Assembly (NCBI GenBank): GCA_041662525.1
Contig: JBAZSF010000002.1
Coordinates: 90,196-154,195 of the forward strand
DNA: 64,000 nucleotides
DNA from: Minisyncoccota bacterium
Lineage (GTDB): Bacteria > Patescibacteriota > Minisyncoccia > Phycocordibacterales > UBA9973
Direction of reading: 5' to 3'
Positions 3,240-54,933 of this stretch are shown here, piece after piece (the stretch's first letter is position 1; each line of letters starts with the position of its first letter). A program made the position numbers and the translations under genes. The notes beneath the pieces were generated by a model. That model was not told the origin of the DNA. It did not search any database and saw only the letters and a list, made by a program, of their open reading frames with translations.

Positions 3240-3250
3240 TGTGGATAACT
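3240..3250 (-). promoter_or_regulatory. AGTTATCCACA box (DnaA-box consensus)
   Basis: Exact 11-mer on the minus strand, ~165 bp upstream of the secreted-protein gene that starts at 3076. A 9-bp inverted repeat (ataacgatt...aatcgttat) lies adjacent. Confidence 0.4.
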
Positions 3251-3264
3251 ATAAAAGTGTTAGT

Positions 3265-4320
3265 TTACTGACTCTCTAAAAACTGAAATATTTTTTCGTT
3301 AGTGAGGACATTTTCGGCGTGCATGCGGGCGCGTTCAGGGTCTGCGTCTTTGTAGTGTTCTAAGATTGCTGCGACTTCGTTGGCTACTTGCTCGTCGTCG
3401 GCGACTATCTTTTCTACTTTCGCTATTTCATTTAATATGAGAGCAAGCTTGGCTTTTTTCTCGGCATCAGTTCTGAATTCTTTTCTTAAATCTTCTTTTG
3501 TTTTATTTAAATGTTTTAGATAATCCTCAAACTTTAAGCCCATTTGGGTGATGTCGGACTCCATGCGATATAAAATCTTATCCAATTCAATTTCCACTAA
3601 AATTTCAGGCAAGTCCACTTGACTACCCTCCACTATTTCTTCAATGATTTTTAAGCGAGTTTTTTCTTTTTGCTGATTCTCTTTTTCTAGTTTTATATTT
3701 TCCTTAAGCTTGATTTTAAAATCTTCTACATCTTTAAAGGGACCAAGGCCTTTCACAAAGTTATCGTTAAGTTCAGGTATTTCTGGTTCTGGATGAACAT
3801 GTTCCTCTCCCTCCTTGTGTTCATGCTCTGCCATATGCACTTTGGGAGCGCGAGATTTCCGGATGTCCATGATGGTATTATCTAAATCTTCATCAGAGAC
3901 AACGATGTTTTTCTCAGTCTCAGTAACATCCCCGATTATTTTTTTAGAGATATTTTTATATTCAGGGAGTTTTATTTCCGGCAAAATAGCAGTTTTAATT
4001 TTAAAACCTAGAGGGTTTTTGCGCGCTAATTTTATAATAGAAATTTCTGGCCTGCCTATAACATCTATTTTCTCATCTTCAATAATTTTTGGATAATGTT
4101 CGCTCAAAGCCATCTCTGCCATTTCTTCCAAAATAGCAATTTCTGGTATATTGGAAAGCAAAACATTCTCTGGTACTTTGCCTTTTCGGAAACCGTCTAA
4201 TTTTACATTTTCACCGAGCTTTTTTAAAGCTTTTGCGTAATAAGACTCAAATATTTCAGAATCAATTTCACCTTCTATTTCTACTTCACTTTGCGGGAGT
4301 TTTTTAATTGTTGTTTTCAT
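3265..4320 (-). CDS. tig: trigger factor (short form)
   Basis: The N-terminal ribosome-binding motif GFRKGKVP is present, together with trigger-factor N and C domains. Confidence 0.8.
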   Translation of the reverse strand: MKTTIKKLPQSEVEIEGEIDSEIFESYYAKALKKLGENVKLDGFRKGKVPENVLLSNIPEIAILEEMAEMALSEHYPKIIEDEKIDVIGRPEISIIKLARKNPLGFKIKTAILPEIKLPEYKNISKKIIGDVTETEKNIVVSDEDLDNTIMDIRKSRAPKVHMAEHEHKEGEEHVHPEPEIPELNDNFVKGLGPFKDVEDFKIKLKENIKLEKENQQKEKTRLKIIEEIVEGSQVDLPEILVEIELDKILYRMESDITQMGLKFEDYLKHLNKTKEDLRKEFRTDAEKKAKLALILNEIAKVEKIVADDEQVANEVAAILEHYKDADPERARMHAENVLTNEKIFQFLESQ

Positions 4321-4359
4321 AGTTTTTTTAGTCTATATTTTTTTATGTTTTTTGTCAAA

Positions 4360-4396
4360 ATAAAAATCCCCGGAATATCCGGGGATTTTTATTTTG
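4360..4396 (-). terminator. rho-independent terminator
   Basis: aaaaatccccgg-aatat-ccggggattttt, a perfect hairpin with flanking T runs. Confidence 0.75.
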
Positions 4397-4402
4397 TGAT
4401 TT

Positions 4403-4618
4403 TTAATTTACACTATTCAAATCTACACCAGTGTTAGTATCTGTCGTTTGTAGATCTGCTTCTAAGGTATTTAGATCAGCAGAATCCTCAATGGTGATAT
4501 TTTCAGATGTGGTCAAATTTTTATTTGACTTCCAGATAAATATTCCACCAATAATAAGAATAAGAACAATCACTACTATTCCAATTGATACCCCGTTTGA
4601 TTTTTTTTCTATTTCCAT
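4403..4618 (-). CDS. small single-pass membrane protein
   Basis: One hydrophobic helix (IGIVVIVLILIIGGIFIW). Confidence 0.4.
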   Translation of the reverse strand: MEIEKKSNGVSIGIVVIVLILIIGGIFIWKSNKNLTTSENITIEDSADLNTLEADLQTTDTNTGVDLNSVN

Positions 4619-4679
4619 AGTTTTCCTCGACTAGCGAGGTAAGTTAAATTTGATTAATAATTTATTGATTATTATTTTC

Positions 4680-5525
4680 TTATGAATTATCTAGTTCCAT
4701 TTTTATCTTTACTGCATCTTTTAATGACTTTACTGCATCTTTTAGTGCTTGGTGAGCATCTTTTATAAGAGTTTGAGTATCTCTTGCAAGAATCACTAAA
4801 TTAGCTTTTTGTGTTGCAGAAAGAGCATTAATTGAAGTTGCTAAAATTGCGTTCATTTCTGTTATTTTTGCGTTAGCGGCATTTAGTTTTGTTTCAGCAG
4901 TTGCTACAAAAATTTTAGCATTAGAGACGTCTACCCCCTTTATTGTTAATTTAGCTATTTGATCATTAACTCTATTTTTTAAATCGTTTATTCTTAGAAC
5001 CGCTGCATTAAATCTCTCTAAAGCATTTTCTCGTCCAACGATTCTTGCTTCTTTAATCTTTGCTTTTGCAGCATCTTTTTCATTTTTAATTAGATTTCTT
5101 AGATCTTCCAATTTATTTTTGACTGTTTCTCTTTGCACTTGATTGGCGCGTAGTACATTATCGTTGCTGGAATTATCAATACGTACCCCAGCTGCGTTAA
5201 AATCTCCACTACCTTGATCTGGAGTTCCGTCGTCATCACTACTGTTGGAAGAATTATCAATACGTACCCCAGCTGCGTTGAAATCTCCGCTACCTTGATC
5301 TGGAGTCCCATCATCATCACTGCTATTACTGGAATTATCAATACGTACTCCGGCTGCGTTGAAATCTCCGCTACCTTGATCTGGAGTCCCATCGTCATTA
5401 CTACTAATACCACTGTTAGAGTTTCCAGAACCTGACACCCCATCTTTTGCTTGAGAATTAGTTACACCCACAATAAACGCTAACATTAAAAAAACAACAA
5501 ATAAACCAAAATATTTTTTTATCAT
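4680..5525 (-). CDS. secreted protein with 3 tandem 28-aa repeats and a coiled-coil C-terminus
   Basis: Signal peptide, then (DDGTPDQGSGDFNAAGVRIDNSSNSS)x3, then a K/E/A-rich heptad region. Confidence 0.6.
   Translation of the reverse strand: MIKKYFGLFVVFLMLAFIVGVTNSQAKDGVSGSGNSNSGISSNDDGTPDQGSGDFNAAGVRIDNSSNSSDDDGTPDQGSGDFNAAGVRIDNSSNSSDDDGTPDQGSGDFNAAGVRIDNSSNDNVLRANQVQRETVKNKLEDLRNLIKNEKDAAKAKIKEARIVGRENALERFNAAVLRINDLKNRVNDQIAKLTIKGVDVSNAKIFVATAETKLNAANAKITEMNAILATSINALSATQKANLVILARDTQTLIKDAHQALKDAVKSLKDAVKIKMELDNS
5160..5415 (-). repeat. 3 x 84-bp near-perfect tandem repeat inside the CDS
   Basis: The unit ...atcaatacgtacyccrgctgcgttgaaatctccgctaccttgatctggagtcccatc... is seen directly three times. 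Confidence 0.85.
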
Positions 5526-5602
5526 ATATATTTTTTATAGAGATTACTAATTAATAATAGTACTTATTGTAAAACAATAACATTAATTTAGTATTAACTT
5601 GA

Positions 5603-6187
5603 TTATTCGAAATTCTTTAGATAAATATCTTTATATCTTTCTTCGCATTCCTTTGTTATTTTTAGAGCTTCAGTTTTGTCAAAAAAACCTTTTGTTATTC
5701 CTGTGCTAGGTTTTTTAAGATGTTTATAATATTCCCAGAAATGAGTAGTTTCTTTTTTAAACTGTTCTCCTAAATCATCAATTGATTTAATGTGGTCACT
5801 TCTTCTATCCTCAGACAACACAGCAATTATTTTATCATCAATTTCTCCTCCATCTTCAAACTTCATTACACCGATAATACGAGCTTCAACCAAACAGCCA
5901 GGTACAAGTGGTTCGGTCACATTGGCTATACAAATATCAAGAGGATCATTGTCATAGTCCCAAGTTTGAGGTATTGCTCCATATGAAAAAGGATAAGCGA
6001 GAGACGAATAACCGACTCGGTCAAGTTTGAGTTGTCCAGATTCTGTGATTATTTCATATTTACTGATAGCGCCAGAATTTATTTCAATTATTGCGTTCAC
6101 GACATCAATCTTTTCTTCTACAAAAGGAGAAAGAGCATGCAATAAATTTAGCATGTATTTCGAGGGTTTTTGATTTATGTTTGCCAT
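5603..6187 (-). CDS. ppa: inorganic pyrophosphatase (family I)
   Basis: DPLDICI and EARIIGVMKFEDGGEIDDKIIAV motifs. Confidence 0.85.
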   Translation of the reverse strand: MANINQKPSKYMLNLLHALSPFVEEKIDVVNAIIEINSGAISKYEIITESGQLKLDRVGYSSLAYPFSYGAIPQTWDYDNDPLDICIANVTEPLVPGCLVEARIIGVMKFEDGGEIDDKIIAVLSEDRRSDHIKSIDDLGEQFKKETTHFWEYYKHLKKPSTGITKGFFDKTEALKITKECEERYKDIYLKNFE

Positions 6188-6202
6188 GTGTTTATTCTAC
6201 TT

Positions 6203-7411
6203 CTATTCCTCACTTTTTTCAACTACAGAGGAATCTTCTGTGGAAACATTTGTATCGTCTCCTTTGATGTCTATTCTCCATCCAGTGAGCTTGGCAGCTA
6301 GGCGTACATTTTGTCCACCTTTACCGATAGCGAGGGAAAGTTGGTCATTTGCTACTTCTACGATGGCTTTATGTTCTTTTTCATCTATCTCAATAGAAAT
6401 AACTTTTGCTGGAGAAAGGGAATTGGATACGAATTGTATAGGGTTTTCGGACCAAGGAATGATGTCAATTTTCTCTCCTGAAAGTTCTGTCGTAATAGTA
6501 TTTACTCGAGTTCCTTTTTGTCCGACACAAGAGCCGACTGGGTCGATATGTTCATCGTTTGAATAAACTGCAATTTTTGAACGAGCGCCTGCTTCACGAG
6601 CAACGGATTTTATTTCCACTATGCCTTTCTCTATTTCTGGCGCTTCGATGGCAAAAAGTTTTTCAACAAATTTAGGGTGAGTCCGAGAAAGACGCAAGTT
6701 TATACCTCGATGAGTGTCTTCTACACTATAAAGATAAGCTCGTATTCTTTGTCCTCGAGCCCAATATTCTCCTGGGATTTGTTCTTCGGTGGGCAATATC
6801 CCTGTCGCTCTATTGAAATCAACATAGACATTTCCACGTTCTACTTTTTGAACTATACCAGAGATAACTTCGCCTTCCTTGGTGCCATATTCGTCTATGA
6901 TAGAAGTACGTTCTGCTTCACGGATTTTCTGGATGATGACTTGCTTGGCAGTCTGTGCAGCAATACGCCCATAATCATCTTTTTGTTCCAATGGAAAAAT
7001 GATTTCATCGTTGAGCTCTGCTCCTTTCTTTATTTTTTTTGCATCTTCGAGAAGGATGTGGTGTTCAGAATTAAAATGTACTCGTTCATCAGTATTGTCT
7101 TTGAGAGAATATTCATCATCATGTTTTTTTTCTCCATCCATAATAGCAATAGTTTCATCTACCACGATTTTTACTTGGAAGAAATCTGTTTTACCAGTCT
7201 CCATATCAAAACGAGCCCGGATGATTTGTCCTTTTTTGCCGTAATCTTTTTTATAAGCAGCAGCCATTGCTTGTTCTATAGCTTCTAATATTTTTGCTTT
7301 TGGAATTTTCTTTTCTTCTTCTAATTGTTCTAAAGCAGATTTGAATGTTTTTATATCTAACATTGATTTTGCGAAATCACGTCGCGCAACCGTCCGATTA
7401 GCGTGACGCAA
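6203..7411 (-). CDS. nusA: transcription termination/antitermination factor NusA
   Basis: NusA N-terminal domain, S1 domain and two KH domains (GQKGTRVN..., GKGGQNVRLA). Confidence 0.9.
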   Translation of the reverse strand: MRHANRTVARRDFAKSMLDIKTFKSALEQLEEEKKIPKAKILEAIEQAMAAAYKKDYGKKGQIIRARFDMETGKTDFFQVKIVVDETIAIMDGEKKHDDEYSLKDNTDERVHFNSEHHILLEDAKKIKKGAELNDEIIFPLEQKDDYGRIAAQTAKQVIIQKIREAERTSIIDEYGTKEGEVISGIVQKVERGNVYVDFNRATGILPTEEQIPGEYWARGQRIRAYLYSVEDTHRGINLRLSRTHPKFVEKLFAIEAPEIEKGIVEIKSVAREAGARSKIAVYSNDEHIDPVGSCVGQKGTRVNTITTELSGEKIDIIPWSENPIQFVSNSLSPAKVISIEIDEKEHKAIVEVANDQLSLAIGKGGQNVRLAAKLTGWRIDIKGDDTNVSTEDSSVVEKSEE

Positions 7412-7505
7412 TTTTTATTAAATTTTATTAAAAAAAGCCCTGTTGCTACAGGACTCATATATAAGAATAGTATCATAGGAGCTATTTTAATGCAATCCCG
7501 TGAAT

Positions 7506-7516
7506 AGTTATCCACA
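7506..7516 (+). promoter_or_regulatory. AGTTATCCACA box within a gtgaat/attcac inverted repeat
   Basis: Exact 11-mer, 48 bp upstream of the ORF at 7564. Confidence 0.4.
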
Positions 7517-7563
7517 CCCCTGATTCACCCTTTTTATTTTTTGTTCTATACTTGAATTAACTT

Positions 7564-7833
7564 ATGAATAAAAATCAAAAGATCGCAATAATTATTTTGA
7601 TTATCATCCTTTTAGGTTTGTTTATCTTTTATTTTATCTTTAAACCGAAATCACCTCCACCTCTTACAGAAATGGAAGCAAAACAAGCTCTCATTGATTC
7701 CATTACTATCCCCACTACTGCACCAATATCAATGAATGAAAAAGAATCAAAGCAACTCATTGATTCCATTACCATACCAAAAAAAACAACAACTATTATT
7801 AATAACAAAAAAATTAAATTTAATGAAAACTAA
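7564..7833 (+). CDS. small membrane protein with duplicated LIDSITIP motif
   Basis: N-terminal TM helix and an internal duplication. It overlaps the next gene start by 11 bp. Confidence 0.35.
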   Translation: MNKNQKIAIIILIIILLGLFIFYFIFKPKSPPPLTEMEAKQALIDSITIPTTAPISMNEKESKQLIDSITIPKKTTTIINNKKIKFNEN

Positions 7834-8776
7834 AATAATCCAAAACATAAAATCAATAATCCTAGCGTTAATGTTGGTAGCCGGAGTTAGTTATGTTTCT
7901 GCTGTTGGTACGTGGAGTGGTCCAACAGCGACTGCACCTGGTAATAATACTGATACACCACTGAATGTAGGTAGTACACTTCAATCAAAAAGTGGTTGGC
8001 TTGGAGTGGGGGGGATCTTTACGCCTTCAGTTTCAATGGATATACGGAATACCGGTGGGTTATTGGGTGGTCTAACTACAACAGGAGGGGCAGTGTTAAA
8101 TACAGGTGGAGCTACTAATGGCCTTATTGTACAAAATGGTAAAGTTGGAATTGGGACAGCGACTCCAAACTCCGCGTTGGCTTTTGGCAATACTTTAAAC
8201 CCTTTAAATATAGCAAGCGGAGCCGCTCGGACAGATTCAAAAATTTTGCTTTACGATCTCGGGGCTTCTAATTGGGCGGGTATTGGCGCTGATCAGGCCG
8301 GAGCACTTTGGTTACGAAATGGAACGTCTGCTTCTAATTATTTAGTAATGTTACCAAGCAACGGTAATGTCGGGATTGGAACAACGAATCCGGTAGCGAG
8401 GCTGGATGTGAATGGAGAGATTAATGCGTATATGAAAATAATATTTGTTGGCTTACAAAAGACTCCAAATCCTGTAAGTGATTACGTGTTTTCTTTTAAT
8501 GTTCCAGCTCAATATACCATAGCTATGGCACAAAAAATTGCAGCTAGATTTTGTAGTCAAGCATTTCCCGTTTACGGAGATGATATATGTTGGTTTGGAA
8601 TCGGCTGTGCAGGACCGAATCATTATTCTGATATTGGAGCTTTTAAAATAAATAAAAATTATCAAGCTAATTTCCCGACGGGTAGTTGGAAAGAATCTGA
8701 TAATATAACCACGCCTACATATATTTTTAAGGATGAGAATAACGTTACTACGACGAATAAATGTAATTGGAACTAG
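7823..8776 (+). CDS. secreted protein with tail-fibre-like repeats and a Cys-rich C-terminus
   Basis: Signal peptide (ILALMLVAGVSYVSA), then VGIGTATPNSAL and VGIGTTNPVARLDVNG motifs typical of phage tail-fibre or glycine-rich beta-helix repeats. Six Cys residues lie in the last 100 aa. The ATG at 7823 was chosen instead of the ORF-track start. Confidence 0.55.
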   Translation: MKTKIIQNIKSIILALMLVAGVSYVSAVGTWSGPTATAPGNNTDTPLNVGSTLQSKSGWLGVGGIFTPSVSMDIRNTGGLLGGLTTTGGAVLNTGGATNGLIVQNGKVGIGTATPNSALAFGNTLNPLNIASGAARTDSKILLYDLGASNWAGIGADQAGALWLRNGTSASNYLVMLPSNGNVGIGTTNPVARLDVNGEINAYMKIIFVGLQKTPNPVSDYVFSFNVPAQYTIAMAQKIAARFCSQAFPVYGDDICWFGIGCAGPNHYSDIGAFKINKNYQANFPTGSWKESDNITTPTYIFKDENNVTTTNKCNWN

Positions 8777-8808
8777 TCTAATTAAGATTAAATTTTTACA
8801 GAAAATAC

Positions 8809-8840
8809 AAAAAACCGGGAATCGTCTCGGTTTTTTGTAT
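8809..8840 (+). terminator. terminator hairpin
   Basis: aaaaaccgggaatcgtctcggtttttt. Confidence 0.5.
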
Positions 8841-8956
8841 TTTGGAGTGCTCTTGATTTTTATTTGTTGGTATGTTAGAATAAAAATTGAAAAAAGAGGG
8901 CCTTGGGCTCTTTGAAAGTACAATAAATAAAAAAAACTAAAAGGGGGTCGAAAAAA

Positions 8957-9649
8957 ATGAAAATAAAAGGGATTGTTTTTTTATTTTTATTTACGTTATT
9001 GGTCGGTTGTGGGGGAGGCGGGTCCTCCGAAATAGTTAGCGTCACCGTAGGCCAGCCTGCGGTGAAAAAAATATGCACAGTTGGCGACAGTAACGACTGT
9101 CGCCTGACTGAGGTTGTATCTGAAACCCAGTCAGGATACGAATACTTAAATTTGGGAGTGGGTGGTTATACCACTGCCCAGATGTTGCAAAAACTGAGGA
9201 GTGACACCTCAGTTAATGGCGAATTTGGCTCCGCTTGGGTCTGGGGAGGAACGAACGATCTCATAACCGGAGTTTCGGTTGATGAGATTAAAAAAAATTT
9301 GCAGGATATTTACAACATCCTGCATTATAGGGGTATAACAGTTGTTGCTTTGACTGTCATGCCCTTCGGAAATTGGAAAGGCGACCCAGCTTTTCCACTC
9401 TGGGGTCCGTGGACTCCAGAGAAACAGGTTCAGCTTGAGGAGCTGAATCATTGGATTATCAATGAAGCTCAGGTTGACCATGTGGTTAATCTGAGCTGGG
9501 TGGCAGATCCAAACAATCCCTTTATTATCAATCCTAGACGGGATCGAGGTGATGGGGTTCATGTTACGGACGAAACCTACAGAGATGTAGGCACGTTCGT
9601 TTTAAATAAAATGCAAAATAAGCCATCGCCAACACTGGCGATGAGATAA
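8957..9649 (+). CDS. SGNH/GDSL-family hydrolase lipoprotein
   Basis: Lipobox LLVGC, GDS block (TVGDSND) and GGTND block. GC is ~50% and a strong GGGGG Shine-Dalgarno site is present. Confidence 0.7.
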   Translation: MKIKGIVFLFLFTLLVGCGGGGSSEIVSVTVGQPAVKKICTVGDSNDCRLTEVVSETQSGYEYLNLGVGGYTTAQMLQKLRSDTSVNGEFGSAWVWGGTNDLITGVSVDEIKKNLQDIYNILHYRGITVVALTVMPFGNWKGDPAFPLWGPWTPEKQVQLEELNHWIINEAQVDHVVNLSWVADPNNPFIINPRRDRGDGVHVTDETYRDVGTFVLNKMQNKPSPTLAMR

Positions 9650-9671
9650 AAGATAAAAAGGATGTATCACA

Positions 9672-9708
9672 ATGCCGGTCAGGTTTACCTGACCGGCATC
9701 TTTTATTT
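9672..9708 (+). terminator. rho-independent terminator
   Basis: atgccggtcagg-tttac-ctgaccggcat followed by ttttattt. Confidence 0.8.
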
Positions 9709-9749
9709 AAAAAACAAAAAATATTAGAATATTTTGAAGTTCAGGGTTC

Positions 9750-9760
9750 TGTGGATAAGT
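9750..9760 (-). promoter_or_regulatory. ACTTATCCACA box (perfect TTATCCACA core)
   Basis: Lies 40 bp upstream of the surface-protein gene start at 9800. Confidence 0.35.
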
Positions 9761-9799
9761 AATTTTGTAGTATTTTTTAATTGGGGATATAATATAAAA

Positions 9800-10966
9800 A
9801 TGAAAATTTCTTTTTTAAAAATCTTTTTTGTTTTAATGTTTGGAATCTTTTGTTTTTCTCCTTTGATGGTTTCAGCAAGTTCTACAGACAGCATGTCTGG
9901 TTGGGCTTGGTCGTCAAATATCGGCTGGATTAGTTTTAATTGTACGAATGATAGCAGTTGCGCGACTTCAGACTATGGTGTAAATAAAAATGCCGATGGC
10001 ACTCTCACAGGCTATGCTTGGTCATCAAATATCGGCTGGATAAAATTTGGTGGATTTATTATTTCTGATTTTCCAACAAACGGGACTGGAACACAACAAA
10101 TAAATGCAAAGATAAATGGTAATAATTTGCAAGGTTGGGCAAAAGCTCTGTCTGGAGGAGATGGTAGTAGTGGTTGGGATGGATGGATTTCTTTTTCAGG
10201 CACTACTCCAAATTATGGAGTGAGTCTAACTGGTGATAATTTTTCTGGGTATGCTTGGGGAAGTGAAGTAGTGGGTTGGGTTGATTTTAGTGGGGTGATC
10301 ATTGGTGCTGCTGTGCCTGCGATGTCTGGTACCCTGACTCCAGCAATTTCTTCTTGTATCATTGCATCAGGAACCAGTAGTTGTCCCATAAATCTATCTT
10401 GGAGTATTATAAATCCTGTTGGAACTCCGACTGCTATCACAGCTTCTGGAATGACTAATGTAAATGTAACAAATACTTTAACTACCCCTCAGTCAGGTGG
10501 TCCTACAGCTTTTACTGTTCCTTGGGGAGGTAGAACATTTTATCTCTATAACAATGGGATTTTGCTTGCTGAAAGTGTTGTTTCTGCGTCTTCTGTGACT
10601 TGCGCAATAGGAACTAGTTGGAATGGAACAATATGTACAGCGACACTTGTAAATGGTTCTTGTTCTTCTCCGGCTACTCACTATACTTGTAACTCAGGGA
10701 CAAGTGAGAATAATTTAGATAATGGTTCTGTTTACACTTGGGATTGTATGGGTTCTAATGGTGGAATGGATGAATTAGGGTGTTCTGAAGACAAGTCTTT
10801 TTCTGGAGTCGGATGTTCTTCTCCAATGATACATTATAAATGTGCTGATAATAGTGATGGCGCAAATCAAAAAGCTAGCCCTTCTAAGTGGACGTGGACT
10901 TGTGGAAATGGGTTTGCGACTTCATTTTGTTCAGAAAAGAAAAGTCCGGGGTATATTGAAAATTAA
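9800..10966 (+). CDS. secreted surface protein with G(Y/W)AWSSNIGWI(S/K)F repeats and a Cys-rich C-terminal half
   Basis: Signal peptide, then four aromatic GW-type repeats, then an S/T/G-rich region with many Cys. Confidence 0.6.
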   Translation: MKISFLKIFFVLMFGIFCFSPLMVSASSTDSMSGWAWSSNIGWISFNCTNDSSCATSDYGVNKNADGTLTGYAWSSNIGWIKFGGFIISDFPTNGTGTQQINAKINGNNLQGWAKALSGGDGSSGWDGWISFSGTTPNYGVSLTGDNFSGYAWGSEVVGWVDFSGVIIGAAVPAMSGTLTPAISSCIIASGTSSCPINLSWSIINPVGTPTAITASGMTNVNVTNTLTTPQSGGPTAFTVPWGGRTFYLYNNGILLAESVVSASSVTCAIGTSWNGTICTATLVNGSCSSPATHYTCNSGTSENNLDNGSVYTWDCMGSNGGMDELGCSEDKSFSGVGCSSPMIHYKCADNSDGANQKASPSKWTWTCGNGFATSFCSEKKSPGYIEN

Positions 10967-11052
10967 CTCTTCGAATTTACTTAGGGCAAATTAATAAAAT
11001 AAAATTAACAAAAAATTCCCTTATTAGGGAATTTTTTGTTATAATACAAGTA

Positions 11053-31029: not shown

Positions 31030-34000
31030 ATGGCCAAAGAAATTCAGGAAGAAGAAAATAAAAGCGAAGCGGCTTTGCGGGAAGAGCGGATTTTAGAATT
31101 TTGGAAAGAAAATAAAACTTTTGAAAAAACTTTAAAACAAACGGAGGGCAAAAAAGAATTTATTTTTTACGAAGGTCCGCCGACAGCGAATGGCAAGCCA
31201 GGCATTCATCATTTAGAAGCGCGAGCATTCAAAGACGCAATTCCTAGGTATAAAACAATGCAGGGTTTCCATGTTCGTCGAAAGGGTGGATGGGATACAC
31301 ATGGGCTTCCCGTTGAGCTTCAGGTAGAAAAAAAGCTAGGGCTTAATTCTAAAAAAGCTATCGAAGAATATGGTATTGCGAAATTTAATCAAGAATGCAA
31401 AGAAAGCGTCTGGGAGTATTTAGATATTTGGAATAAATTTACTCATCGTATTGGATATTGGGTGGATCAAGAGAACCCGTATGTGACATATCACAACGAT
31501 TATATTGAATCTGTTTGGAATGTTGTTAAAGCAATAAATAAACAAAATTTACTTTATAAAGATTATAAAGTGGTGCCTTGGTGTCCTAGGTGTGGTACAG
31601 CTTTGTCCTCTCATGAACTTGCGCAGGGTTATGAAGATGTGAAAGATTTGTCTGTGTATGTGAAGTTTAAGGTTCGTTCTGTCCCCGAAAGATTTTCTCA
31701 GGTCCTCGGAACTCCCTCTCCCTATCCCGGCCAGACCATTCAAAAACCTTCCGGGGACTTTACTTATATTCTTGCTTGGACGACAACTCCGTGGACACTT
31801 CCTGGGAATGTAGCATTGGCAGTAGGAGAAAATATTATTTATGTAAAAATAGAAAAACCTGCCTCGACGCAAGGCGGGGGAAAAGAATTTTTAATTTTAG
31901 CAAAAGAAAGACTTTCTATTTTAGAAGGGGAATATAAAATAATTGAAGAATTTATAGGCAAAGATTTAATTGGATTGGAATACGAGCCTCTTTATCCATA
32001 TCTTGCTGACACAATTTCTGAAAGTGAAAAACCTAAATTAGAAAAAGCTTTCAAGGTTTATGGAGCGGATTTTGTAACGACAGAAGACGGTACAGGGGTA
32101 GTGCATACGGCAGTGATGTACGGACAGGATGACTTTGAGCTTGGTACAAAGGTTGGTTTGCCAAAGCATCATATTGTCGGTCTAGATGGAAAATTTTTAC
32201 CGGGTACTGGAATATTTGAAGGTAGATTTGTGAGAGATGAAGACGTGGCGGTAGATGTGATAAAAGATTTAGCGCATAGAGGAAATGGAGGGCTTTTATT
32301 TAAAAAAGAAAAATACGAGCATTCCTATCCGCATTGTTGGAGATGCAAAACGGCACTTATTTATTACGCTCGAGATTCTTGGTATATAAAAGTCTCTGAT
32401 CCTAAAATAAAAGAAAGAATGATAGCCGAGAACAAAGAAGTAAATTGGGAACCAGCACATATTCGGGATGGGCGTTTTGGTGAATGGTTAAGGGAGATAA
32501 AAGATTGGGCGATTTCTCGTGAGCGATATTGGGGTACACCTTTGCCTGTTTGGATTTGTGAATCTTGCAAGAAGATTGACGTCATCGGGAGCATTGAAGA
32601 TTTAAAAAATAAAACTAAAAAATTTGGCAATAAATATTTTGTAATGAGACATGGTGAAGCAGAAAATAATGCTCTTTGTATTTATTCTTCCAATCAAAAA
32701 ATAAATCATTTGACAAAGCTCGGACAAACGGAAGTTGAAAAGACATCCCAAGTTCTTTTGAACAAAAAAATTACCAAGATTTATTGCTCGCCCTTTTTAA
32801 GAACACGAGAAACTGCCGAAATCGTTGCAGAGCAGATAAATTTCCCTAAAGATAGAATTATTTACGATGATAGAATTCGAGAATTAGAATTTGGAGATTT
32901 TTCTGATTGTAGAGAGGAGGATTTTTGGGATTTTATAAAAAATAAAGATTGGGGATTTGATACAGTTGTCCCTGGAGGGGAGAGCCACCAAAATGCAAAG
33001 AATCGAATGGGAGATTTTCTTTATGAAATTGATCAAAAAAATAAAGATGAAACGATTTTAATTATTTCGCATGGATTAGCAATAGAAATGATTCCAGCTA
33101 TTATTGAAGGAGCAGATAAAAAGCGTTCACTCGAAATTTTCCATTCACATATATGCGACAAACCAGCTTCATTGCACAAAGAACATGAATTTGTTTTTCT
33201 TCCCCATAACGCAGACTATGAACTTGATTTACATAAACCTTTTATAGATGAAGTTAATCTGATGTGCACCCATTCTACTGGCAGAGGGCAAGTATGTGGG
33301 GGAAAATTAACTCGCACTCGCGAGGTGATGGATGTCTGGTTTGATTCTGGATGTATGCCATTTGCGCAAGATCATTATCCCTTCGATTTCTCTCAGGGCA
33401 AGCCTTTTGAGGAGACCGAAATTTTATACCCTGCAGATTTTATTTCGGAAGCAATAGATCAGACTCGTGGATGGTTTTATACTTTGCATGCTGTTGGAAT
33501 ACTTATGGGGCGAGGGAAAGCATATAAAAATGTAATTTGTCTTGGACATTTACTCGATTCCAAAGGTAAAAAAATGTCTAAATCTCTTGGTAATATTGTC
33601 GACCCTTGGGAGATGATAGAAAAATACGGAGTGGATACATTGAGACTCTGGATGTATTCAGTCAATCAACCTGGAGAATCTAAAAATTTTGATGAAAAAA
33701 CTGTCGCTCTTCTCCACCAACAAGTTTTTGGTTTGCTTTATAATGTGCTCGCTTTCTATGAGCTTTATCGAGATAATTCTATCAATGCCCATTCGACAAG
33801 CTCAGGACAAATATCAAGTACTAACGTTCTTGATATTTGGATTTTAGCACGGCTAGATGAATTGATTAGCGAATCCACAAAAAAAATGGATAATTATAAA
33901 TTGCTTGAACCAGTGCGAGCGATAAAGGATTTTATTGGGGACCTTTCTACTTGGTATTTGCGTCGTTCACGTGAGCGGATAAAGAATGGAGATAGGCAAG

Positions 34001-34629
34001 CGAAAGAAACTCTGTATTATGTATTAAAAACTCTTGTAAAACTTCTAGCACCTTTTGCCCCCTTTACAGCTGAAGATATTTGGATGAAATTAAAAACAGA
34101 AAAAGATGAAGAAAGTGTGCATTTGGCTGAGTGGCCCCTCGCTTCTGCTCGGGGCCTTCAGCCCAAGATTTTAGAGAATATGCAAAAAACAAGAGATATT
34201 GTGACTTTAGGACTTGAAGCTCGTCAAAAGGCTGGAATAAAAATCAGGCAACCTTTGCAATCTTTTTCTTTTGAATCAACAGATTTAGACGAATACAGCA
34301 ATCTTATCAAAGATGAGCTTAATGTAAAAGAGATCATACATGGTGACCTTATGCTTGATACAAATATTACTTCAGAATTAAAACAAGAAGGGGATTGTCG
34401 TGAGCTTATACGTGCCTTACAAGATATGCGTAAAAATCAGGGACTAACACCGAGCGATGCTATTTCAATTGTTTTTGAAACAAATGATAATGGTAAAAAA
34501 TTAATTGAAAAATTTGAAAATGATTTGAAAAAAACTGTGCTAGTTTCTGAAATAAAATATCGTGAAAATGATGGACAGGAAATAAGAATAGACGAATTTG
34601 CTTTTAAAGTGAAAATTAGTAAAATATAA
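31030..34629 (+). CDS. ileS: isoleucine--tRNA ligase carrying two insertions (repeat-encoded loop and a histidine-phosphatase domain)
   Basis: PGIHHLEA (HIGH-like), WTTTPWTLP, WAISRERYWGTPLP, DVWFDSG and KMSKS motifs. At 1199 aa it is ~200 aa longer than typical bacterial IleS. Confidence 0.9.
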   Translation: MAKEIQEEENKSEAALREERILEFWKENKTFEKTLKQTEGKKEFIFYEGPPTANGKPGIHHLEARAFKDAIPRYKTMQGFHVRRKGGWDTHGLPVELQVEKKLGLNSKKAIEEYGIAKFNQECKESVWEYLDIWNKFTHRIGYWVDQENPYVTYHNDYIESVWNVVKAINKQNLLYKDYKVVPWCPRCGTALSSHELAQGYEDVKDLSVYVKFKVRSVPERFSQVLGTPSPYPGQTIQKPSGDFTYILAWTTTPWTLPGNVALAVGENIIYVKIEKPASTQGGGKEFLILAKERLSILEGEYKIIEEFIGKDLIGLEYEPLYPYLADTISESEKPKLEKAFKVYGADFVTTEDGTGVVHTAVMYGQDDFELGTKVGLPKHHIVGLDGKFLPGTGIFEGRFVRDEDVAVDVIKDLAHRGNGGLLFKKEKYEHSYPHCWRCKTALIYYARDSWYIKVSDPKIKERMIAENKEVNWEPAHIRDGRFGEWLREIKDWAISRERYWGTPLPVWICESCKKIDVIGSIEDLKNKTKKFGNKYFVMRHGEAENNALCIYSSNQKINHLTKLGQTEVEKTSQVLLNKKITKIYCSPFLRTRETAEIVAEQINFPKDRIIYDDRIRELEFGDFSDCREEDFWDFIKNKDWGFDTVVPGGESHQNAKNRMGDFLYEIDQKNKDETILIISHGLAIEMIPAIIEGADKKRSLEIFHSHICDKPASLHKEHEFVFLPHNADYELDLHKPFIDEVNLMCTHSTGRGQVCGGKLTRTREVMDVWFDSGCMPFAQDHYPFDFSQGKPFEETEILYPADFISEAIDQTRGWFYTLHAVGILMGRGKAYKNVICLGHLLDSKGKKMSKSLGNIVDPWEMIEKYGVDTLRLWMYSVNQPGESKNFDEKTVALLHQQVFGLLYNVLAFYELYRDNSINAHSTSSGQISSTNVLDIWILARLDELISESTKKMDNYKLLEPVRAIKDFIGDLSTWYLRRSRERIKNGDRQAKETLYYVLKTLVKLLAPFAPFTAEDIWMKLKTEKDEESVHLAEWPLASARGLQPKILENMQKTRDIVTLGLEARQKAGIKIRQPLQSFSFESTDLDEYSNLIKDELNVKEIIHGDLMLDTNITSELKQEGDCRELIRALQDMRKNQGLTPSDAISIVFETNDNGKKLIEKFENDLKKTVLVSEIKYRENDGQEIRIDEFAFKVKISKI
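31681..31758 (+). repeat. repeat family 1, copy B (core 31701-31740), inserted in-frame in ileS
   Basis: Core GGTCCTCGGAACTCCCTCTCCCTATCCCGGCCAGACCATT flanked by gtccccgaaag / cttccggggac inverted arms. It encodes PERFSQVLGTPSPYPGQTIQKPSGD in a variable loop before the editing domain. Confidence 0.65.
32600..33230 (+). other. histidine-phosphatase (PGM/SixA/PhoE-like) domain inserted within ileS
   Basis: FVMRHGEAENN (RHG motif), SPFLRTRETAEIV and LIISHGLAI (second catalytic His). It lies between the WG(T/V)PLP and DVWFDSG blocks, where normal IleS has only ~60 aa. Confidence 0.55.
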
Positions 34630-47187: not shown

Positions 47188-47239
47188 AGGTAATATACTA
47201 GCAGAAAAATTTATTAAATCAAATTAAAAAACCTTGGAT

Positions 47240-47328: not shown

Positions 47329-47346
47329 ATCCAAAGTTTTTTTTAA

Positions 47347-48420: not shown

Positions 48421-48436
48421 TTTTTTTCATTTACTT

Positions 48437-48516
48437 AAATAATTTTACTTTTTGAAATGGTCTGGCTGGGATAGGGACCCAGAGAACCGAGGACCTTTCA
48501 AAAAGAAAAATTATTT
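48437..48516 (-). repeat. repeat family 1, copy C (core 48457-48495, minus orientation), ~25-60 bp upstream of the recA start
   Basis: Minus-strand core GGTCCTCGGTTCTCTGGGTCCCTATCCCAGCCAGACCATT with locus-specific arms aaataattttactttttgaaa / tttcaaaaagaaaaattattt. The ctggg/cccag hairpin is a compensatory variant of copy A's ccggg/cccgg. Confidence 0.65.
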
Positions 48517-48867
48517 TGGTAAATACATTATTTTATAATTTTTCTCATCAATATAGCCAAATTTATCTTTTGCTTTGATATTGATTATATTATACCCTAA
48601 AAGAAGCGCAATTGTTTCAGTAAAGTTACCTTGCTCGTCTACTGAAATATCTCGTCCGTTCAAGGTTAAATTTATTGCATTTTTTGCCTTACCGGTCAGT
48701 TTTATTGTATTGGATGTTACCGTAATGCCATCTTCTAGATTCACATTTTTAATTTTTACACCGAATATTAAATCTTTAGACCCAAAAATTGCATAAATAA
48801 TAATTAAAATAAAAAAAATAGAAATACCAATTATTTTAATTATTTTTTTAGATAATATTTTCTCCAT
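48511..48867 (-). CDS. hypothetical membrane-anchored protein
   Basis: N-terminal TM helix. Confidence 0.4.
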   Translation of the reverse strand: MEKILSKKIIKIIGISIFFILIIIYAIFGSKDLIFGVKIKNVNLEDGITVTSNTIKLTGKAKNAINLTLNGRDISVDEQGNFTETIALLLGYNIINIKAKDKFGYIDEKNYKIMYLPK

Positions 48868-51088: not shown

Positions 51089-51304
51089 TTAGATATTTTA
51101 GCATAAAATAAAAAAATTAGAGTAGTCTTTTAAATGCCTTGCGCAGGAACTTAGAAAATAAAAATGGTAATCCATTTATTATTTTCTTGAGTGACGAGCA
51201 GAGCAAATTTTCAGCAGGAAATTATGTGTGCATTTTAAAGACTACTCTAATTTTTTATTAGTATTTTACCTTGCTTTTTTGGATGTCTTATATATAATGG
51301 ACAG

Positions 51305-52138
51305 ATGTTTAAGGAAGAAAAAAACATCAAAGACTCCATAAAAGACACTTCTTCTTCTCCTGTTCCATATCGAGCCTCAGGTTTTGGCATGATGTCCTAT
51401 ACAAAAACAAATAAGCTTATTACTGCACTTTATATGGTTACGGACATTATAGACAAAGATGAACCACTTAGGAATAAATTAAGGACATTGGGAGTAGAAG
51501 TTATATCAGACATGAATTCTACTTCTCTGAATGTTTGCAGTAAAATATCAGAGATAGTGTCCTTTTTAGACATTGCTTCTGCTGTAAATATTATTTCTGA
51601 GATGAATCATTCTATTCTTAAAAAAGAGTTTTTTGAATTAAATCAATCTGTAAAAAAGTCTGTGGGTGAAGTTAAAACTATAGATAAGCAAATAGATCTT
51701 TCTGAATTTTTTAGAGAGGAATTGCCTCCAGCTAGACAAAGTTTAAGCGAAGAGGGGGAGAAAGGAAATTATATAGGACATCATAACGGACATCAATATT
51801 CTACTAGAGTTGGGGTCCAGAAAGGAAGCACTTTGATGAAAGCCTTGTCCGATAAGATTAATAATAAAAGACTCCAAGATTTACATAATTCTTATGCCCA
51901 AAATTTTGACATATTTAAAAAACAAAGACGTGAAGATATAATAAATATTATTAAAGCTATTAGTGGAAACGGCACAATAAAGGACATAAAGGACAGAGCA
52001 AAGAGTTCCCCTAACGAATTTAAATCGCTCGTTTCTTCAAGTGAAAAGACGCTTCAAAGAGAGCTCGTTTCTATGGTAAAAGATGGTGTCCTTAAAAAAA
52101 CAGGGGAGAAGCGTTGGAGTAAATATTTTTTAAAATAA
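51305..52138 (+). CDS. hypothetical protein with C-terminal winged-helix-like segment
   Basis: The C-terminal LVSMVKDGVLKKTGEKRWSKY resembles a wHTH recognition helix and wing. Confidence 0.4.
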   Translation: MFKEEKNIKDSIKDTSSSPVPYRASGFGMMSYTKTNKLITALYMVTDIIDKDEPLRNKLRTLGVEVISDMNSTSLNVCSKISEIVSFLDIASAVNIISEMNHSILKKEFFELNQSVKKSVGEVKTIDKQIDLSEFFREELPPARQSLSEEGEKGNYIGHHNGHQYSTRVGVQKGSTLMKALSDKINNKRLQDLHNSYAQNFDIFKKQRREDIINIIKAISGNGTIKDIKDRAKSSPNEFKSLVSSSEKTLQRELVSMVKDGVLKKTGEKRWSKYFLK

Positions 52139-52158
52139 ATTTTATTCAACCCCTTCAA

Positions 52159-52228
52159 CCTCCCTTGTTAGGGGAGGCGTGAATATTCCCCCTGACAAGG
52201 GGGATAAAGGGGGTTGCGTTTTTATTTT
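52159..52228 (+). terminator. paired GC hairpins followed by a T run (probable terminator)
   Basis: cctccc-ttgtta-ggggagg and ccccct-gaca-aggggg, then gtttttatttt. Confidence 0.45.
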
Positions 52229-52302
52229 CTGTTCTTGCTTTTTCTCTAAAAATAAGATAAGATGAACTAGTGGATATTGGTTTCATATGGTTTATTTGAC
52301 CC

Positions 52303-52313
52303 AGTTATCCACA
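52303..52313 (+). promoter_or_regulatory. AGTTATCCACA box
   Basis: Exact 11-mer in a 590-bp AT-rich intergenic region upstream of the surface-protein gene. Confidence 0.4.
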
Positions 52314-52600
52314 TAATATATTGCTATATTTTTTAGAGATATATTATAATGTTGTTATGTTCATGAGTTACACATTCTTTGTGTAGTTTGTGTTCGAAAG
52401 TTATTTATTTTTTATTCAAGATTTCGTCGAAAAAATCTTGGAAGAAAATAGATCCCTGCTAAACATCCTGAAGTTTTACTAAAGGATTTTGGTTGGGTAA
52501 AGAAAGGTCATTGAAAACCGAATAGCTATGTTTTCAATGTTAGTTTATCTCTGTTCATTATTTATTTGTCCACCCCATTATTAGCAATTATTAATTTATT

Positions 52601-52610
52601 GGTGGATAAG
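52601..52610 (-). promoter_or_regulatory. TTATCCACC box (one mismatch)
   Basis: Second DnaA-box-like site in the same intergenic region. Confidence 0.3.
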
Positions 52611-52727
52611 AAATAATGATAGGAAAAAATACGCTTTTAGTTTTGTCGAAACTAATTAAATGGCGTAAAGTTTTGTAGTTTAATTTTAAAAAGAATTTTA
52701 TTACAAAACAAAAATTAGAAAAAATTT

Positions 52728-54797
52728 ATGAGTAAATTATTAAAATCAAAATTTCTTCTTGGAGTTATGGCTGTAGCAGTTATGTTTGTTGGTGTCGTTG
52801 CAATTTCTGCAGAGACAGCTTCAGCTGATACTTGCTCAACAGGTACAACTACATTAAGAGTAGGTTCAAGAGGTGCTGCAGTAACTTGTCTTCAAGCTAC
52901 TTTGGATGCTGGAATCGCCGCTGATGGTGTTTTCGGTCCAAAGACTCAAGCTAGAGTTATGGCTTGGCAGTCAGATCATGGTCTAGTAGCTGATGGAGTA
53001 TTCGGTCCTAAATCAAGAGCTGTATTTGTTGCTGGTGGTGCCGTAGTAGTTGTTCCTGGTCTTCCAGCAGGTTGTACATCAACCGCAGGATTCAGTTCAA
53101 CAACTGGCGCATCATGTGCAACAGGAGCAACTGGTCCTTGTACTGGTGGAGCATTATTTAATTCTGTAACAGGAGCTTCATGTTCAAGTACTCTTCCAGC
53201 AGGTTGTACAACAACCGCAGGATTCAGTCCAACAACAGGAGTTTCATGTTCTTCAACAACACCAGTTATAAGTGCAAGTGGTGAAGGTTCAATTGCAGTA
53301 ACCTACAATCCAACTCCTACAAATAGCCTTGCTATTAATAAAGGAGAGGAAAAAGAAGCCTTTGGTATAAAAATCAAAGCTTCAGGTTCTGATATGACAG
53401 TCAATCGTGTTTGGATCAACCTTACTGATGGAACAAGTGCTAGCCCACGTATATGGCTATCTGCTGACAAGGCAACCTTGTTAGACGGTTCAACTGTTCT
53501 AGGAGAAATTGCGCTTTCATCTTCAACAGTAACAGAAATTACTGCAGGAGCTGAATATCAACTTCAATTCAATGGTTTGAATGTTACAGTTCCAAAAGAT
53601 GGTACAAAAGTATTGTCAGTTAAATTCCGTCGCCCAACTCTTACTTCAGACAGTGGAACAATCTTAATCGCTGCAAACGGAGTTTCTGTAAGAGCAACTG
53701 ATGGTGCTGGTCTTTCAGATGCATATACAATTGCAGCAACACGTACTTTGAATTTTGCTAACGTTGCAGGAGCAACAGGTACATTGACAGCTACATTGGC
53801 TTCAACCTCACCAGCAAATCGAGCAGTTAATGGTCTTAGTACTACTTCTGGTGTTACCACTGATGTTAAATTGATGGATTTCAATCTTAAGGCAACAGAT
53901 GGAGCAATCAATGTTTCTGCTCTTTCTGGTACTATTACTAACGCTGGTACATGTGCTGATACAGGTACAACATCAGAGTGTCTCTCTTCAATAGAGCTTC
54001 GAGATGGTTCAACTGTTCTTGATTCAGTTACAGGAGCTAACGTTTTTGCTTTCGCTGACTTGAGTGTTGATATCTCAGCAGACACAACAAAGATGTTGTC
54101 AGTCTGGGCTAAAGTAAATCCTGTATTGGCAAGTAACGTTGTTGCAGGTGATTCAGTTTACGCAGTTGTTAACTCAATTACCGCTACAACTGGTACTGAC
54201 TTTACCGCTATCGTTGATTCCTTTAGTGTAACTGGAAACGCTCAAGTTTTCTATGCTGATGGTATAAATGTAAGCTTAGTATCAAAGAGCGCAACAAAGA
54301 CAGTTTCACCTGATACAGCAACTACAACTGATTCTGGTTCATATGTCATCAATTTTGACGTAACCGCAGTCGGTGCAGACATGTATCTTGATAAATCATC
54401 AACACTTAATATTGTTGCTGGTGGCGTAGATGCTGCTGCGGGACAAGGTGTATTGTTTGAAATCTATAAGAATGGGGTAGCTGTAGATCAAGCTGTAGCA
54501 AACTTTGCAGCTGGTCCAGCATCTGTTCTTAGTGTTGATGGTTCTACAGTTGGAACCGTAGACAACCTTACCAACAAGTTCAAGATTACTGAAGGAGAGA
54601 CTCGTCATTTTCATTTGACAGTTGCCGTCGGTCTTGATACTACAGGTACAAATGGTGATGGATTCTACCGAGTAGGTATGCCTTCTATCAACTGGACAAG
54701 TGTAACAACAGATAATGACCTAGCAGCTAACTACTACACATTTGGTCTTAGTGATTTCGTAACACCTGACTTGACTCTTAGTGACTACGCTCTTTAA
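52728..54797 (+). CDS. secreted surface protein: N-terminal peptidoglycan-binding (PG_binding_1-like) tandem domains + Cys-motif repeats + T/S/A/V-rich beta region
   Basis: Signal peptide. LRVGSRGAAVTCLQATLDAGIAADGVFGPKTQARVMAWQSDHGLVADGVFGPKS matches the PG-binding domain. Three copies of a GCT(S/T)TAGFS.TTG(A/V)SC motif follow. Confidence 0.7.
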   Translation: MSKLLKSKFLLGVMAVAVMFVGVVAISAETASADTCSTGTTTLRVGSRGAAVTCLQATLDAGIAADGVFGPKTQARVMAWQSDHGLVADGVFGPKSRAVFVAGGAVVVVPGLPAGCTSTAGFSSTTGASCATGATGPCTGGALFNSVTGASCSSTLPAGCTTTAGFSPTTGVSCSSTTPVISASGEGSIAVTYNPTPTNSLAINKGEEKEAFGIKIKASGSDMTVNRVWINLTDGTSASPRIWLSADKATLLDGSTVLGEIALSSSTVTEITAGAEYQLQFNGLNVTVPKDGTKVLSVKFRRPTLTSDSGTILIAANGVSVRATDGAGLSDAYTIAATRTLNFANVAGATGTLTATLASTSPANRAVNGLSTTSGVTTDVKLMDFNLKATDGAINVSALSGTITNAGTCADTGTTSECLSSIELRDGSTVLDSVTGANVFAFADLSVDISADTTKMLSVWAKVNPVLASNVVAGDSVYAVVNSITATTGTDFTAIVDSFSVTGNAQVFYADGINVSLVSKSATKTVSPDTATTTDSGSYVINFDVTAVGADMYLDKSSTLNIVAGGVDAAAGQGVLFEIYKNGVAVDQAVANFAAGPASVLSVDGSTVGTVDNLTNKFKITEGETRHFHLTVAVGLDTTGTNGDGFYRVGMPSINWTSVTTDNDLAANYYTFGLSDFVTPDLTLSDYAL

Positions 54798-54855
54798 TTA
54801 GAAGCTAGTTTACTTAGATAAATCAGTTCTGGTTAATACGCCTTAAAAAGTATTC

Positions 54856-54890
54856 AAAAAACCACTCTTAATTGAGTGGTTTTTTGTTTG
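54856..54890 (+). terminator. rho-independent terminator
   Basis: aaaaaccactc-ttaatt-gagtggttttt. Confidence 0.8.
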
Positions 54891-54922
54891 TGTTTTTTAA
54901 ATAATTTTTTTATTGGAAAATA

Positions 54923-54933
54923 AGTTATCCACA
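54923..54933 (+). promoter_or_regulatory. AGTTATCCACA box
   Basis: Exact 11-mer, 114 bp upstream of the surface-protein gene at 55047. Confidence 0.4.

Follow-up and report, generated by a model that had tools for sequence, protein, structure and literature searches.

The locus described here raises the question of why one short motif keeps returning in the non-coding gaps in front of genes for secreted and surface proteins, and whether it marks a regulatory operator, part of a replication origin or simply a chance recurrence. The locus, hereafter called the window, is a 64,000-nt chromosome segment from a tiny-genome groundwater member of the Paceibacteria (candidate phyla radiation (CPR)/Patescibacteria). 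It has 35% GC and is compact, with about 4.5 kb (7%) being intergenic according to a mechanical gene map. The motif is the 11-mer AGTTATCCACA, for which an earlier note on this DNA had reported exactly four occurrences against about 0.03 expected. Both the count and dinucleotide-preserving shuffles, which never yielded more than one copy, bear this out. The perfect 9-mer TTATCCACA is present five times against 0.78 expected, a number seen in 0 of 100 shuffles, with the fifth copy lying within ACTTATCCACA on the minus strand. A sixth site, overlooked in the earlier note, is the variant AGTTTTCCACA upstream of a membrane-protein gene and a gene for a 1262-aa surface protein. Looser matches are not enriched in the window, neither those with one mismatch to the motif (28 vs 19.5 expected) nor TTWTNCACA (8 vs 9.6 expected), and the signal therefore stems from the perfect site. 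What stands out is the perfect box together with TTTTCCACA in intergenic DNA and nothing else; no further box was found elsewhere in the window, the ribosomal-protein, recA and efp genes being among those without one upstream.

All six accepted sites fall in intergenic DNA on the gene map, as had been claimed. The distance from box to start codon, previously given as 40-430 bp, was measured as 41-414 nt, and the genes downstream, said to encode signal-peptide proteins, in all six cases encode a protein with either a signal peptide or an N-terminal membrane segment (Table 1). Three close variants had also been proposed as sites. One of them, at 9750, carries the perfect 9-mer and was retained. 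The second, at 52601, is part of an RNA stem discussed below, and the third (ATATCCACA at 57361) is unsupported as a site, sitting in the left end of an IS200-like element. At 57314-58160, the Y1 transposase gene of this element (57473-58132) has hairpin copies (TTCGGACGTCCAACGTCCGAA) on both flanks. The related strain L081 has other genes at its place, consistent with a recent insertion.

The sites share a defined arrangement relative to promoters, which are here predictions from a scan for consensus -35/-10 elements of the sigma-70 type. At 7506, 52303 and 58161 the box and the predicted -35 are separated by 7 bp; the minus-strand 3240 site has 17 bp instead. The CACA end of the box is found 29-33 or 39 nt before the predicted -10 in 5 of 6 sites, the 9750 site being inverted; in the L001 orthologue of the gene at 9800, the box is forward and 42 nt from the -10. 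The 9-mer is thus centred near -47, or one helical turn further upstream, near -57. At 9788-9802, at 58201-58215 and in many relatives (L004, L006, L010, L014, L032, L081), the start codon follows the predicted -10 by 6-7 nt and lacks a Shine-Dalgarno sequence. Because of this short gap and the missing Shine-Dalgarno sequence, these mRNAs for small membrane and secreted proteins would be leaderless.

Table 1 Boxes, predicted promoters, leaders and associated genes in the window.
Feature	Position	Strand	Remarks
Box AGTTATCCACA	3240-3250 (9-mer 3240-3248)	-	17 bp upstream of -35 hexamer
Predicted promoter TTGACG-16-TAGTAT	3195-3222	-	Downstream of 3240 box
Leader, ~120 nt	After promoter 3195-3222	-	Hairpin CGGGAACACTCGAAACCCG
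Target gene	2720-3076	-	Secreted 118-aa protein, signal peptide MKKFLFLMLFGCMTMVSL
Box AGTTATCCACA	7506-7516	+	Divergent region between nusA and gene at 7564
Predicted promoter TTCACC-17-TATACT	7524-7552	+	7 bp downstream of 7506 box
Target gene	7564-7833	+	89-aa single-pass membrane protein
Second target gene after 7564 (open reading frame, ORF)	7736-8776	+	Secreted protein, no family match
Inverted box ACTTATCCACA	9750-9760 (9-mer 9750-9758)	-	Orientation opposite to downstream gene
-10 TATAAT of 9750 site	9788-9793	+	29 nt from 9-mer; ATG 6 nt further
Target gene	9800-10966	+	Secreted repeat protein (MKISFLKIFFVLM...)
Candidate alternative binder, 277 aa	51305-52138	+	Four-helix bundle, disordered linker, C-terminal winged helix
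Box AGTTATCCACA	52303-52313	+	
Strong conserved predicted promoter TTGCTA-18-TATAAT	52321-52350	+	7 bp downstream of 52303 box
Conserved structured 5' leader, ~370 nt	52357-52727	+	Five hairpins; folding, covariation
Target gene	52728-54797	+	689-aa PG_binding_1 surface protein (MSKLLKSKFLLGV...)
Box AGTTATCCACA, next base G	54923-54933	+	-10 TATAAT at 54967-54972, 33 nt downstream
Target gene	55047-57032	+	661-aa surface protein, signal peptide, C-terminal PG_binding_1 domain
Variant box AGTTTTCCACA	58161-58171	+	7 bp upstream of predicted promoter
Predicted promoter TTGTAA-16-TATAAT	58179-58206	+	ATG 6 nt past -10
Target gene	58213-58851	+	212-aa membrane-anchored protein
Target gene	58883-62671	+	1262-aa Ig-like/DUF5018 surface protein

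The same pattern was recovered in two sets of loci comprising about a hundred relatives and 1.6 Mb in total. Set 1 consists of the window and 32 NusA-anchored Patescibacteria loci (0.56 Mb), while set 2, which is independent of set 1, consists of 80 FtsK-anchored metagenome loci (1.03 Mb) with FtsK identities of 72-86%. The NusA-anchored loci, taken from GTDB genomes, place the lineage in class Paceibacteria as 'Nomurabacteria'-like, and NCBI records one window protein from a 'Candidatus Paceibacterota' MAG. Perfect boxes are strongly concentrated in intergenic DNA in both: 27 intergenic vs 5 coding in set 1 and 79 vs 23 in set 2, corresponding to density ratios of 31-fold and 18.6-fold. Their frequency in set 2 is about 100 per Mb, compared with about 13 predicted by base composition. 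The 48 loci from other phyla that the NusA-anchored scan also returned contain only 4 boxes in about 0.8 Mb, and few boxes were found in the more distant Patescibacteria L022-L032. Promoter geometry is likewise reproduced. Of the 35 sites of set 1 (every intergenic TTATCCACA or TTTTCCACA), 24 have a -10-like hexamer 29-43 nt past the CACA end and 9 have one at this distance on the opposite side; for the 72 unique intergenic sites of set 2 the figures are 66 and 17. A G immediately precedes the 9-mer in 68/72 sites of set 2 and 20/35 of set 1. Variants at positions 3 and 5 seemed enriched in set 1; set 2 upheld TTTTCCACA alone, and this is also the sole variant that retains the association with promoters (12/18 sites). 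The degenerate DnaA consensus was consequently dropped as a fingerprint, since the position-5 claim failed both in set 2 and in the promoter-association test. A partial dyad (GGTGTGG...CCACACC) is seen at a few sites only. Back-to-back boxes in opposite orientation were observed in two relatives (L005 3750/3762 and L154 518/533; TTATCCACAccctGTGGAAAA and TGTGGATAAcaaaagTTATCCACA), and in L005 each box faces its own divergent promoter.

It could be argued that the motif recurs by chance or is a piece of repeated or mobile sequence, and the low GC content of the genome, though nothing more, speaks for this. The shuffles never reached the observed counts, and the pattern is the same in two independent locus sets. 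Further, the 80-nt flanks of the sites are unrelated to each other, which makes the element a short motif and not a long or dispersed repeat. Taken with these observations, a chance or repeat origin is extremely improbable.

Individual sites are conserved at orthologous positions. The box in the region divergent from nusA (the 7506 site) has counterparts in 8 genomes (L001, L003, L004, L006, L007, L010, L012 and L015), where conservation of the region is limited to the 9-mer. Its distance to the nusA -35 varies between 1 and 40 bp, whereas 30-33 or 39-42 nt separate it from the -10 of the small membrane-protein gene transcribed divergently, and it is therefore assigned to the promoter of the latter. 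It should be noted that between promoter and start codon the 5' leader of nusA itself (~7412-7470, minus strand) contains a conserved hairpin that resembles a terminator and has a U-tract (GAGTCCTGTAGCAACAGGGCTTTTTTTAATAAAATTTAATA); this hairpin is also present in L001-L015 and L021 and is a candidate NusA autoregulatory attenuator. About 47 of the set 2 sites are orthologues of the 52303 site. An alignment of 36 of these orthologues showed an invariant GTTATCCACA preceded by an unalignable 5' flank, together with a conserved -35 TTGC and -10 TATTATAAT. The conserved block in the relatives has the exact limits of the 9-bp DnaA box. Boxes are also retained in the strain-level relative L081 and the genus-level relative L163 (a 672-kb contig): the 54923 box is present in both as well as in L085 and L116, and the AGTTTTCCACA variant of the 58161 site is kept in L081 and L082 and recurs in L096 and L117 ahead of genes with a similar start. 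An inverted box was additionally observed just past the rplL terminator, about 40-50 nt before the next gene, at L081 10420 and L163 19741. In L163 this next gene encodes a PKD-domain protein; the window stops at 64000, short of this position.

Boxed promoters preferentially serve one class of genes. Considering forward boxes in set 1, an N-terminal hydrophobic segment is encoded by 22 of 26 boxed genes vs 110/254 unboxed genes having an upstream region of their own (Fisher p = 5e-5). After collapsing orthologues across both sets, a hydrophobic N-terminus is found in 27/34 boxed vs 70/165 unboxed homology clusters (p = 1.1e-4), a result that is independent of a few boxed clusters representing spurious ORFs inside the leader. 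The check proposed in the earlier note, enrichment upstream of signal-peptide-type genes, thus gave a positive answer in both sets of related loci. The largest boxed family is that of the PG_binding_1 surface protein encoded at 52728, with a box in 51 of 79 members, and a second recurrent boxed class in set 2 is the gene for another small secreted protein (MKNIFKGLGLGF...). Exceptions to the envelope class are boxes before Hsp20, argH, a tRNA/YraN region and a small LexA-operator gene. The promoters of the latter type (L003 10119 and L005 20989) combine the box, TTGACA, a LexA-type operator (GTGAACGAGCGTTCAC, GAAC-N4-GTTC) and TATACT. They lie upstream of a gene for a small coiled-coil protein; in L003 the ORF after this gene was judged LexA-like by eye. 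Such a promoter would respond to both the box-binding factor and the SOS repressor, suggesting a possible link to replication stress. That the motif marks a cis-regulatory regulon of secreted and surface-protein genes is well supported. Thus, where the earlier note proposed that DnaA or another regulator controls a surface-protein regulon, the regulon itself is upheld by promoter geometry, conservation and gene class; the identity of its binder is inferred from the motif and is considered below.

The second proposal of the earlier note was that the AT-rich intergenic region at 52140-52727 forms part of a replication origin. This 589-bp region is long and contains a perfect DnaA box, and gene orientation switches close by at 51.1-51.3 kb, all of which would suit an origin. 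Its organization is a different one: terminator hairpins of the upstream gene are followed by the box and a strong predicted promoter and then by a leader of about 370 nt. The leader folds with a minimum free energy of -100.8 kcal/mol (z = -8.3 vs shuffles), and RNAalifold analysis yielded five hairpins with compensatory changes in 31 of 66 pairs. It precedes the same surface-protein gene (start MSKLLKSKFLLGV) in at least 35 relatives. The supposed second box at 52601 (TTATCCACC) is the 3' arm of a covarying leader stem (52601-52609); in relatives this segment reads GGCGGAT, GGCAGAT and similar, with the opposite arm changing to match. This leaves a single box. Clusters are absent throughout, TT[A/T]TNCACA boxes reaching a maximum of one per 600 bp in the window and two in relatives, and neither dnaA nor dnaN is present among the Pfam-annotated genes of the window. 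The cumulative GC skew, suggested earlier as a check, keeps rising through the window, dips only at minus-strand genes and has no minimum at 52 kb. It is therefore very improbable that the chromosomal origin includes this or another of the boxed regions, and the origin proposal was abandoned in favor of a promoter with a transcribed leader. A search for plasmid origins in the region gave no match either.

The leader loops with GUCGAA are invariant (UUUCGUCGAAAAAA and UUUUGUCGAAAC). Other box-driven leaders carry similar hairpin loops with GUCGAA or CUCGAA, specifically GCGUGUCGAAUGCGC in relatives and CGGGAACACUCGAAACCCG in the window (~3110-3130, minus strand). No Rfam family matched the leader at either gathering or E-value thresholds. 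A non-coding RNA gene in the region was considered and rejected: neither an Rfam family nor a tRNA or tmRNA turned up, and the leader is joined to the downstream ORF in all relatives examined. The leader may represent a novel element that regulates in cis or stabilises the mRNA, or it may be bound by an RNA-binding protein.

Which protein recognizes the box? The DnaA-box consensus is given as 9 bp, TTATNCACA, or as TT(A/T)TNCACA (PMC4447404), and DnaA is reported to bind single boxes in vitro and to act as activator or repressor outside oriC (PMC4447404). The five perfect TTATCCACA sites and the one TTTTCCACA site in the window all agree with this consensus. In the oriC sequence of E. coli K-12, box R4 (AGTTATCCACAG) is the same 11-mer as the one found here, box R1 being TGTTATCCACAG; the earlier identification of the motif as containing a classical DnaA box was thus correct. 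The site is also single and asymmetric, as expected for a monomeric binder. DnaA ranks first among the candidates, which is a strong inference from motif identity including that with oriC R4, because the odds that some other, DnaA-unrelated factor recognizes this 9-mer by coincidence are about 1 in 10^5 and because the DnaA of this lineage, if its specificity is the usual one, must bind perfect sites.

A number of other site types were evaluated and rejected: WalR, CRP/FNR half-sites, IHF, parS, KOPS, Chi, DNA-uptake sequences and -35 elements of extracytoplasmic function (ECF) or other alternative sigma factors. None of these accounts for the sequence, or for a lone asymmetric site that is confined to intergenic DNA and lies 30 nt from the -10. 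An UP element, the site of the C-terminal domain of the RNA polymerase alpha subunit (alpha-CTD), would fit by position; the sequence here is C-rich, specific and not at strong promoters generally.

Several points weigh against a DnaA-bound operator of the kind proposed here. Neither dnaA nor oriC of the lineage was met in the window or in the ~112-115 related loci (32 NusA, 80 FtsK), nor is there a dnaA nearby in the 672-kb contig of L163, read from about 10.4 kb inside its end only, and a look-up of ArgH gave nothing; the DnaA of this lineage is accordingly a presumed binder of TTATCCACA. Known DnaA-regulated promoters usually have several boxes, compared with usually one here. Position-5 variants that the DnaA consensus allows lack the association with promoters, as illustrated by TTATACACA (2/9 sites). 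About three quarters of the sampled envelope-protein gene families do not have a box. The -35/-10 scores show no difference between boxed and unboxed promoters, boxed ones being neither weaker nor stronger. Lastly, a conserved winged-helix gene adjoins the best-conserved box and promoter and could encode the true binder.

This gene, which codes for a 277-aa protein, immediately precedes the 52303 box in 74 of the 80 FtsK loci, always located between ftsK and the boxed surface-protein promoter. Its product was picked out by eye from the sequence and by structure prediction. Under this alternative the cis-element and the regulon would be the same and their binder a lineage-specific transcription factor, with which DnaA may compete. 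Among the best 120 of the 1295 members of the 277-aa family, the source names shown are Paceibacteria/Patescibacteria except for two ('Chloroflexota' and 'bacterium'), and the regulon is apparently limited to the same clade, judging from the box-poor L022-L032. Some members are annotated as 'HxlR family regulator'; the protein itself has no Pfam or NCBIfam hit. In an AlphaFold2 model, residues 200-277 form a helix-helix-helix-wing arrangement with predicted local distance difference test (pLDDT) values above 90, and Foldseek comparisons of this C-terminal domain returned a resemblance to the DNA-binding domains of MecI/BlaI, PadR (LmrR) and ArsR, albeit at weak E-values of 0.04-0.3. The four-helix bundle of the model is similar to PDB entries 2gsc and 2rld. 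Winged-helix regulators of these types usually bind dyads or repeats as dimers, and the site at hand is single and asymmetric. The start of the 277-aa gene itself has no box upstream. It would further take a tiny chance for an unrelated factor to have a site equal to the DnaA consensus and the R4 11-mer, unless it evolved to share the site of DnaA, and a lineage DnaA of usual specificity binds perfect boxes regardless of any rival factor. We therefore regard the winged-helix protein as a serious but unlikely candidate for the main binder; its role may lie in binding the box, in competition with DnaA or in some other regulation.

DnaA could also occupy the boxes without any direct role in neighbouring transcription, if these were reservoir or titration sites of the type of datA or the B. 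subtilis DnaA-box clusters (DBCs). Perfect high-affinity sites located in non-coding DNA and about six times commoner than composition predicts are compatible with such a role. Titration loci are clusters of boxes, however, and at most one box per 600 bp is found in the window and at most two in relatives. Titration also leaves unexplained why the boxes keep a set distance and orientation relative to the -10, why they follow the helical phase and why they favor envelope genes, which makes it improbable.

We propose that (A/G)GTT[A/T]TCCACA is the promoter-proximal operator of a conserved Paceibacteria cell-envelope regulon with DnaA as its most likely binder, a combined reading for which we see about as much weight on either side. 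A single copy is usual, placed shortly before the -35 of a predicted ordinary promoter of the sigma-70 type, with its CACA end mostly toward the promoter. The genes under its control would be those for secreted, membrane-anchored and cell-surface proteins, including the main peptidoglycan-binding surface protein with its structured leader. At the box, a DnaA monomer would act as a transcription factor via its domain IV. The constant distance, one-turn phasing and dominant orientation suggest that the box-bound protein contacts RNA polymerase, and it would do so through alpha-CTD or sigma region 4 on one helix face in a class I-like manner. Activation seems more likely than repression, although repression or a DnaA-ATP-dependent switch may be the outcome instead. 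Synthesis of envelope and surface proteins would then follow the amount or state of DnaA, i.e. replication and growth. Going further, DnaA may have taken on the part of a master regulator for the cell-surface proteome across a family of ultra-small Patescibacteria, an idea which we hold more tentatively and against which we would lean slightly. Single perfect R4-type boxes, located on one face of the helix shortly before the -35, would in that case switch the promoters of the main peptidoglycan-binding surface protein and of adhesin-like and small membrane proteins, as well as that of a pilin in a single distant relative. If true, envelope and host-attachment functions would be coupled directly to the replication cycle in organisms with very few other regulators.

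With respect to its remaining gene content, Pfam annotation of the window identified argG, argH, a short trigger factor, pyrophosphatase, NusA, a type IV pilus cluster, TIM, PGK, RecJ, ComEC, several aminoacyl-tRNA synthetases, S6-SSB-S18, EF-P, RecA, FtsK, two PG_binding_1 proteins, the IS200-like transposase, the 1262-aa Ig-like surface protein, L10 and L7/L12. No regulator families, including the AraC family, were found among the window proteins by Pfam and NCBIfam. Two of the encoded enzymes have unusual domain compositions. The isoleucyl-tRNA synthetase (31030-34629, plus strand) contains an inserted histidine-phosphatase domain (His_Phos_1) at residues 537-702, and the trigger factor (3265-4320, minus strand) has its N- and C-terminal domains and no hit to the peptidyl-prolyl isomerase (PPIase) domain.

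Gene regulation in the candidate phyla radiation is, to our knowledge, almost unexplored. CPR organisms are mostly uncultured and encode few recognisable regulators, and the surface of an epibiont is its interface with the host. A conserved operator of defined geometry in front of surface-building genes therefore offers a testable handle on CPR regulation. Full-text literature searches found no published link of the motif to Patescibacteria; DnaA is already known as a transcription factor, and a family-wide regulon of secreted and surface proteins was not found described in the literature searched. If DnaA is the binder, the system would represent an unusually clean case of the initiator doubling as a global regulator of non-replication genes and would show how a minimal genome ties surface growth to the cell cycle. 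Besides correcting the origin hypothesis, the analysis defines promoters, apparent leaderless starts and a new leader RNA that could be used in genetic tools for these bacteria.

Among known systems, oriC arrays and datA/DBC clusters use the same box sequence; the boxes described here differ in being unclustered, away from dnaA, without a change in skew and linked to promoters. The leader of about 370 nt resembles those of S-layer and major surface-protein mRNAs such as Lactobacillus slpA in being a long structured RNA before an apparently major surface-protein gene, but it has no sequence relation to them and belongs to no Rfam family. A parallel in layout is the class I/II marbox bound by MarA, SoxS and Rob, likewise one asymmetric site placed ahead of the -35 or directly against it at many scattered promoters. 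Marbox promoters depend on both the orientation and the helical phase of the site. The box is unrelated in sequence to the 20-bp marbox, and no AraC-family protein was found in the window. Known targets of DnaA outside oriC include dnaA, nrdAB and mioC in E. coli, dnaA, sda and ywlC in B. subtilis, and gcrA, ftsZ and podJ in Caulobacter. The present system shares with these the identical 9-bp site, an 11-mer equal to oriC R4 and a location in the promoter regions of origin-unrelated genes. The known targets are mostly replication, nucleotide and cell-cycle genes with several boxes that often overlap the promoter, whereas here, with DnaA as candidate binder, typically one perfect, phased box occupies a fixed place upstream of the -35 of genes for secreted and surface proteins in the CPR.

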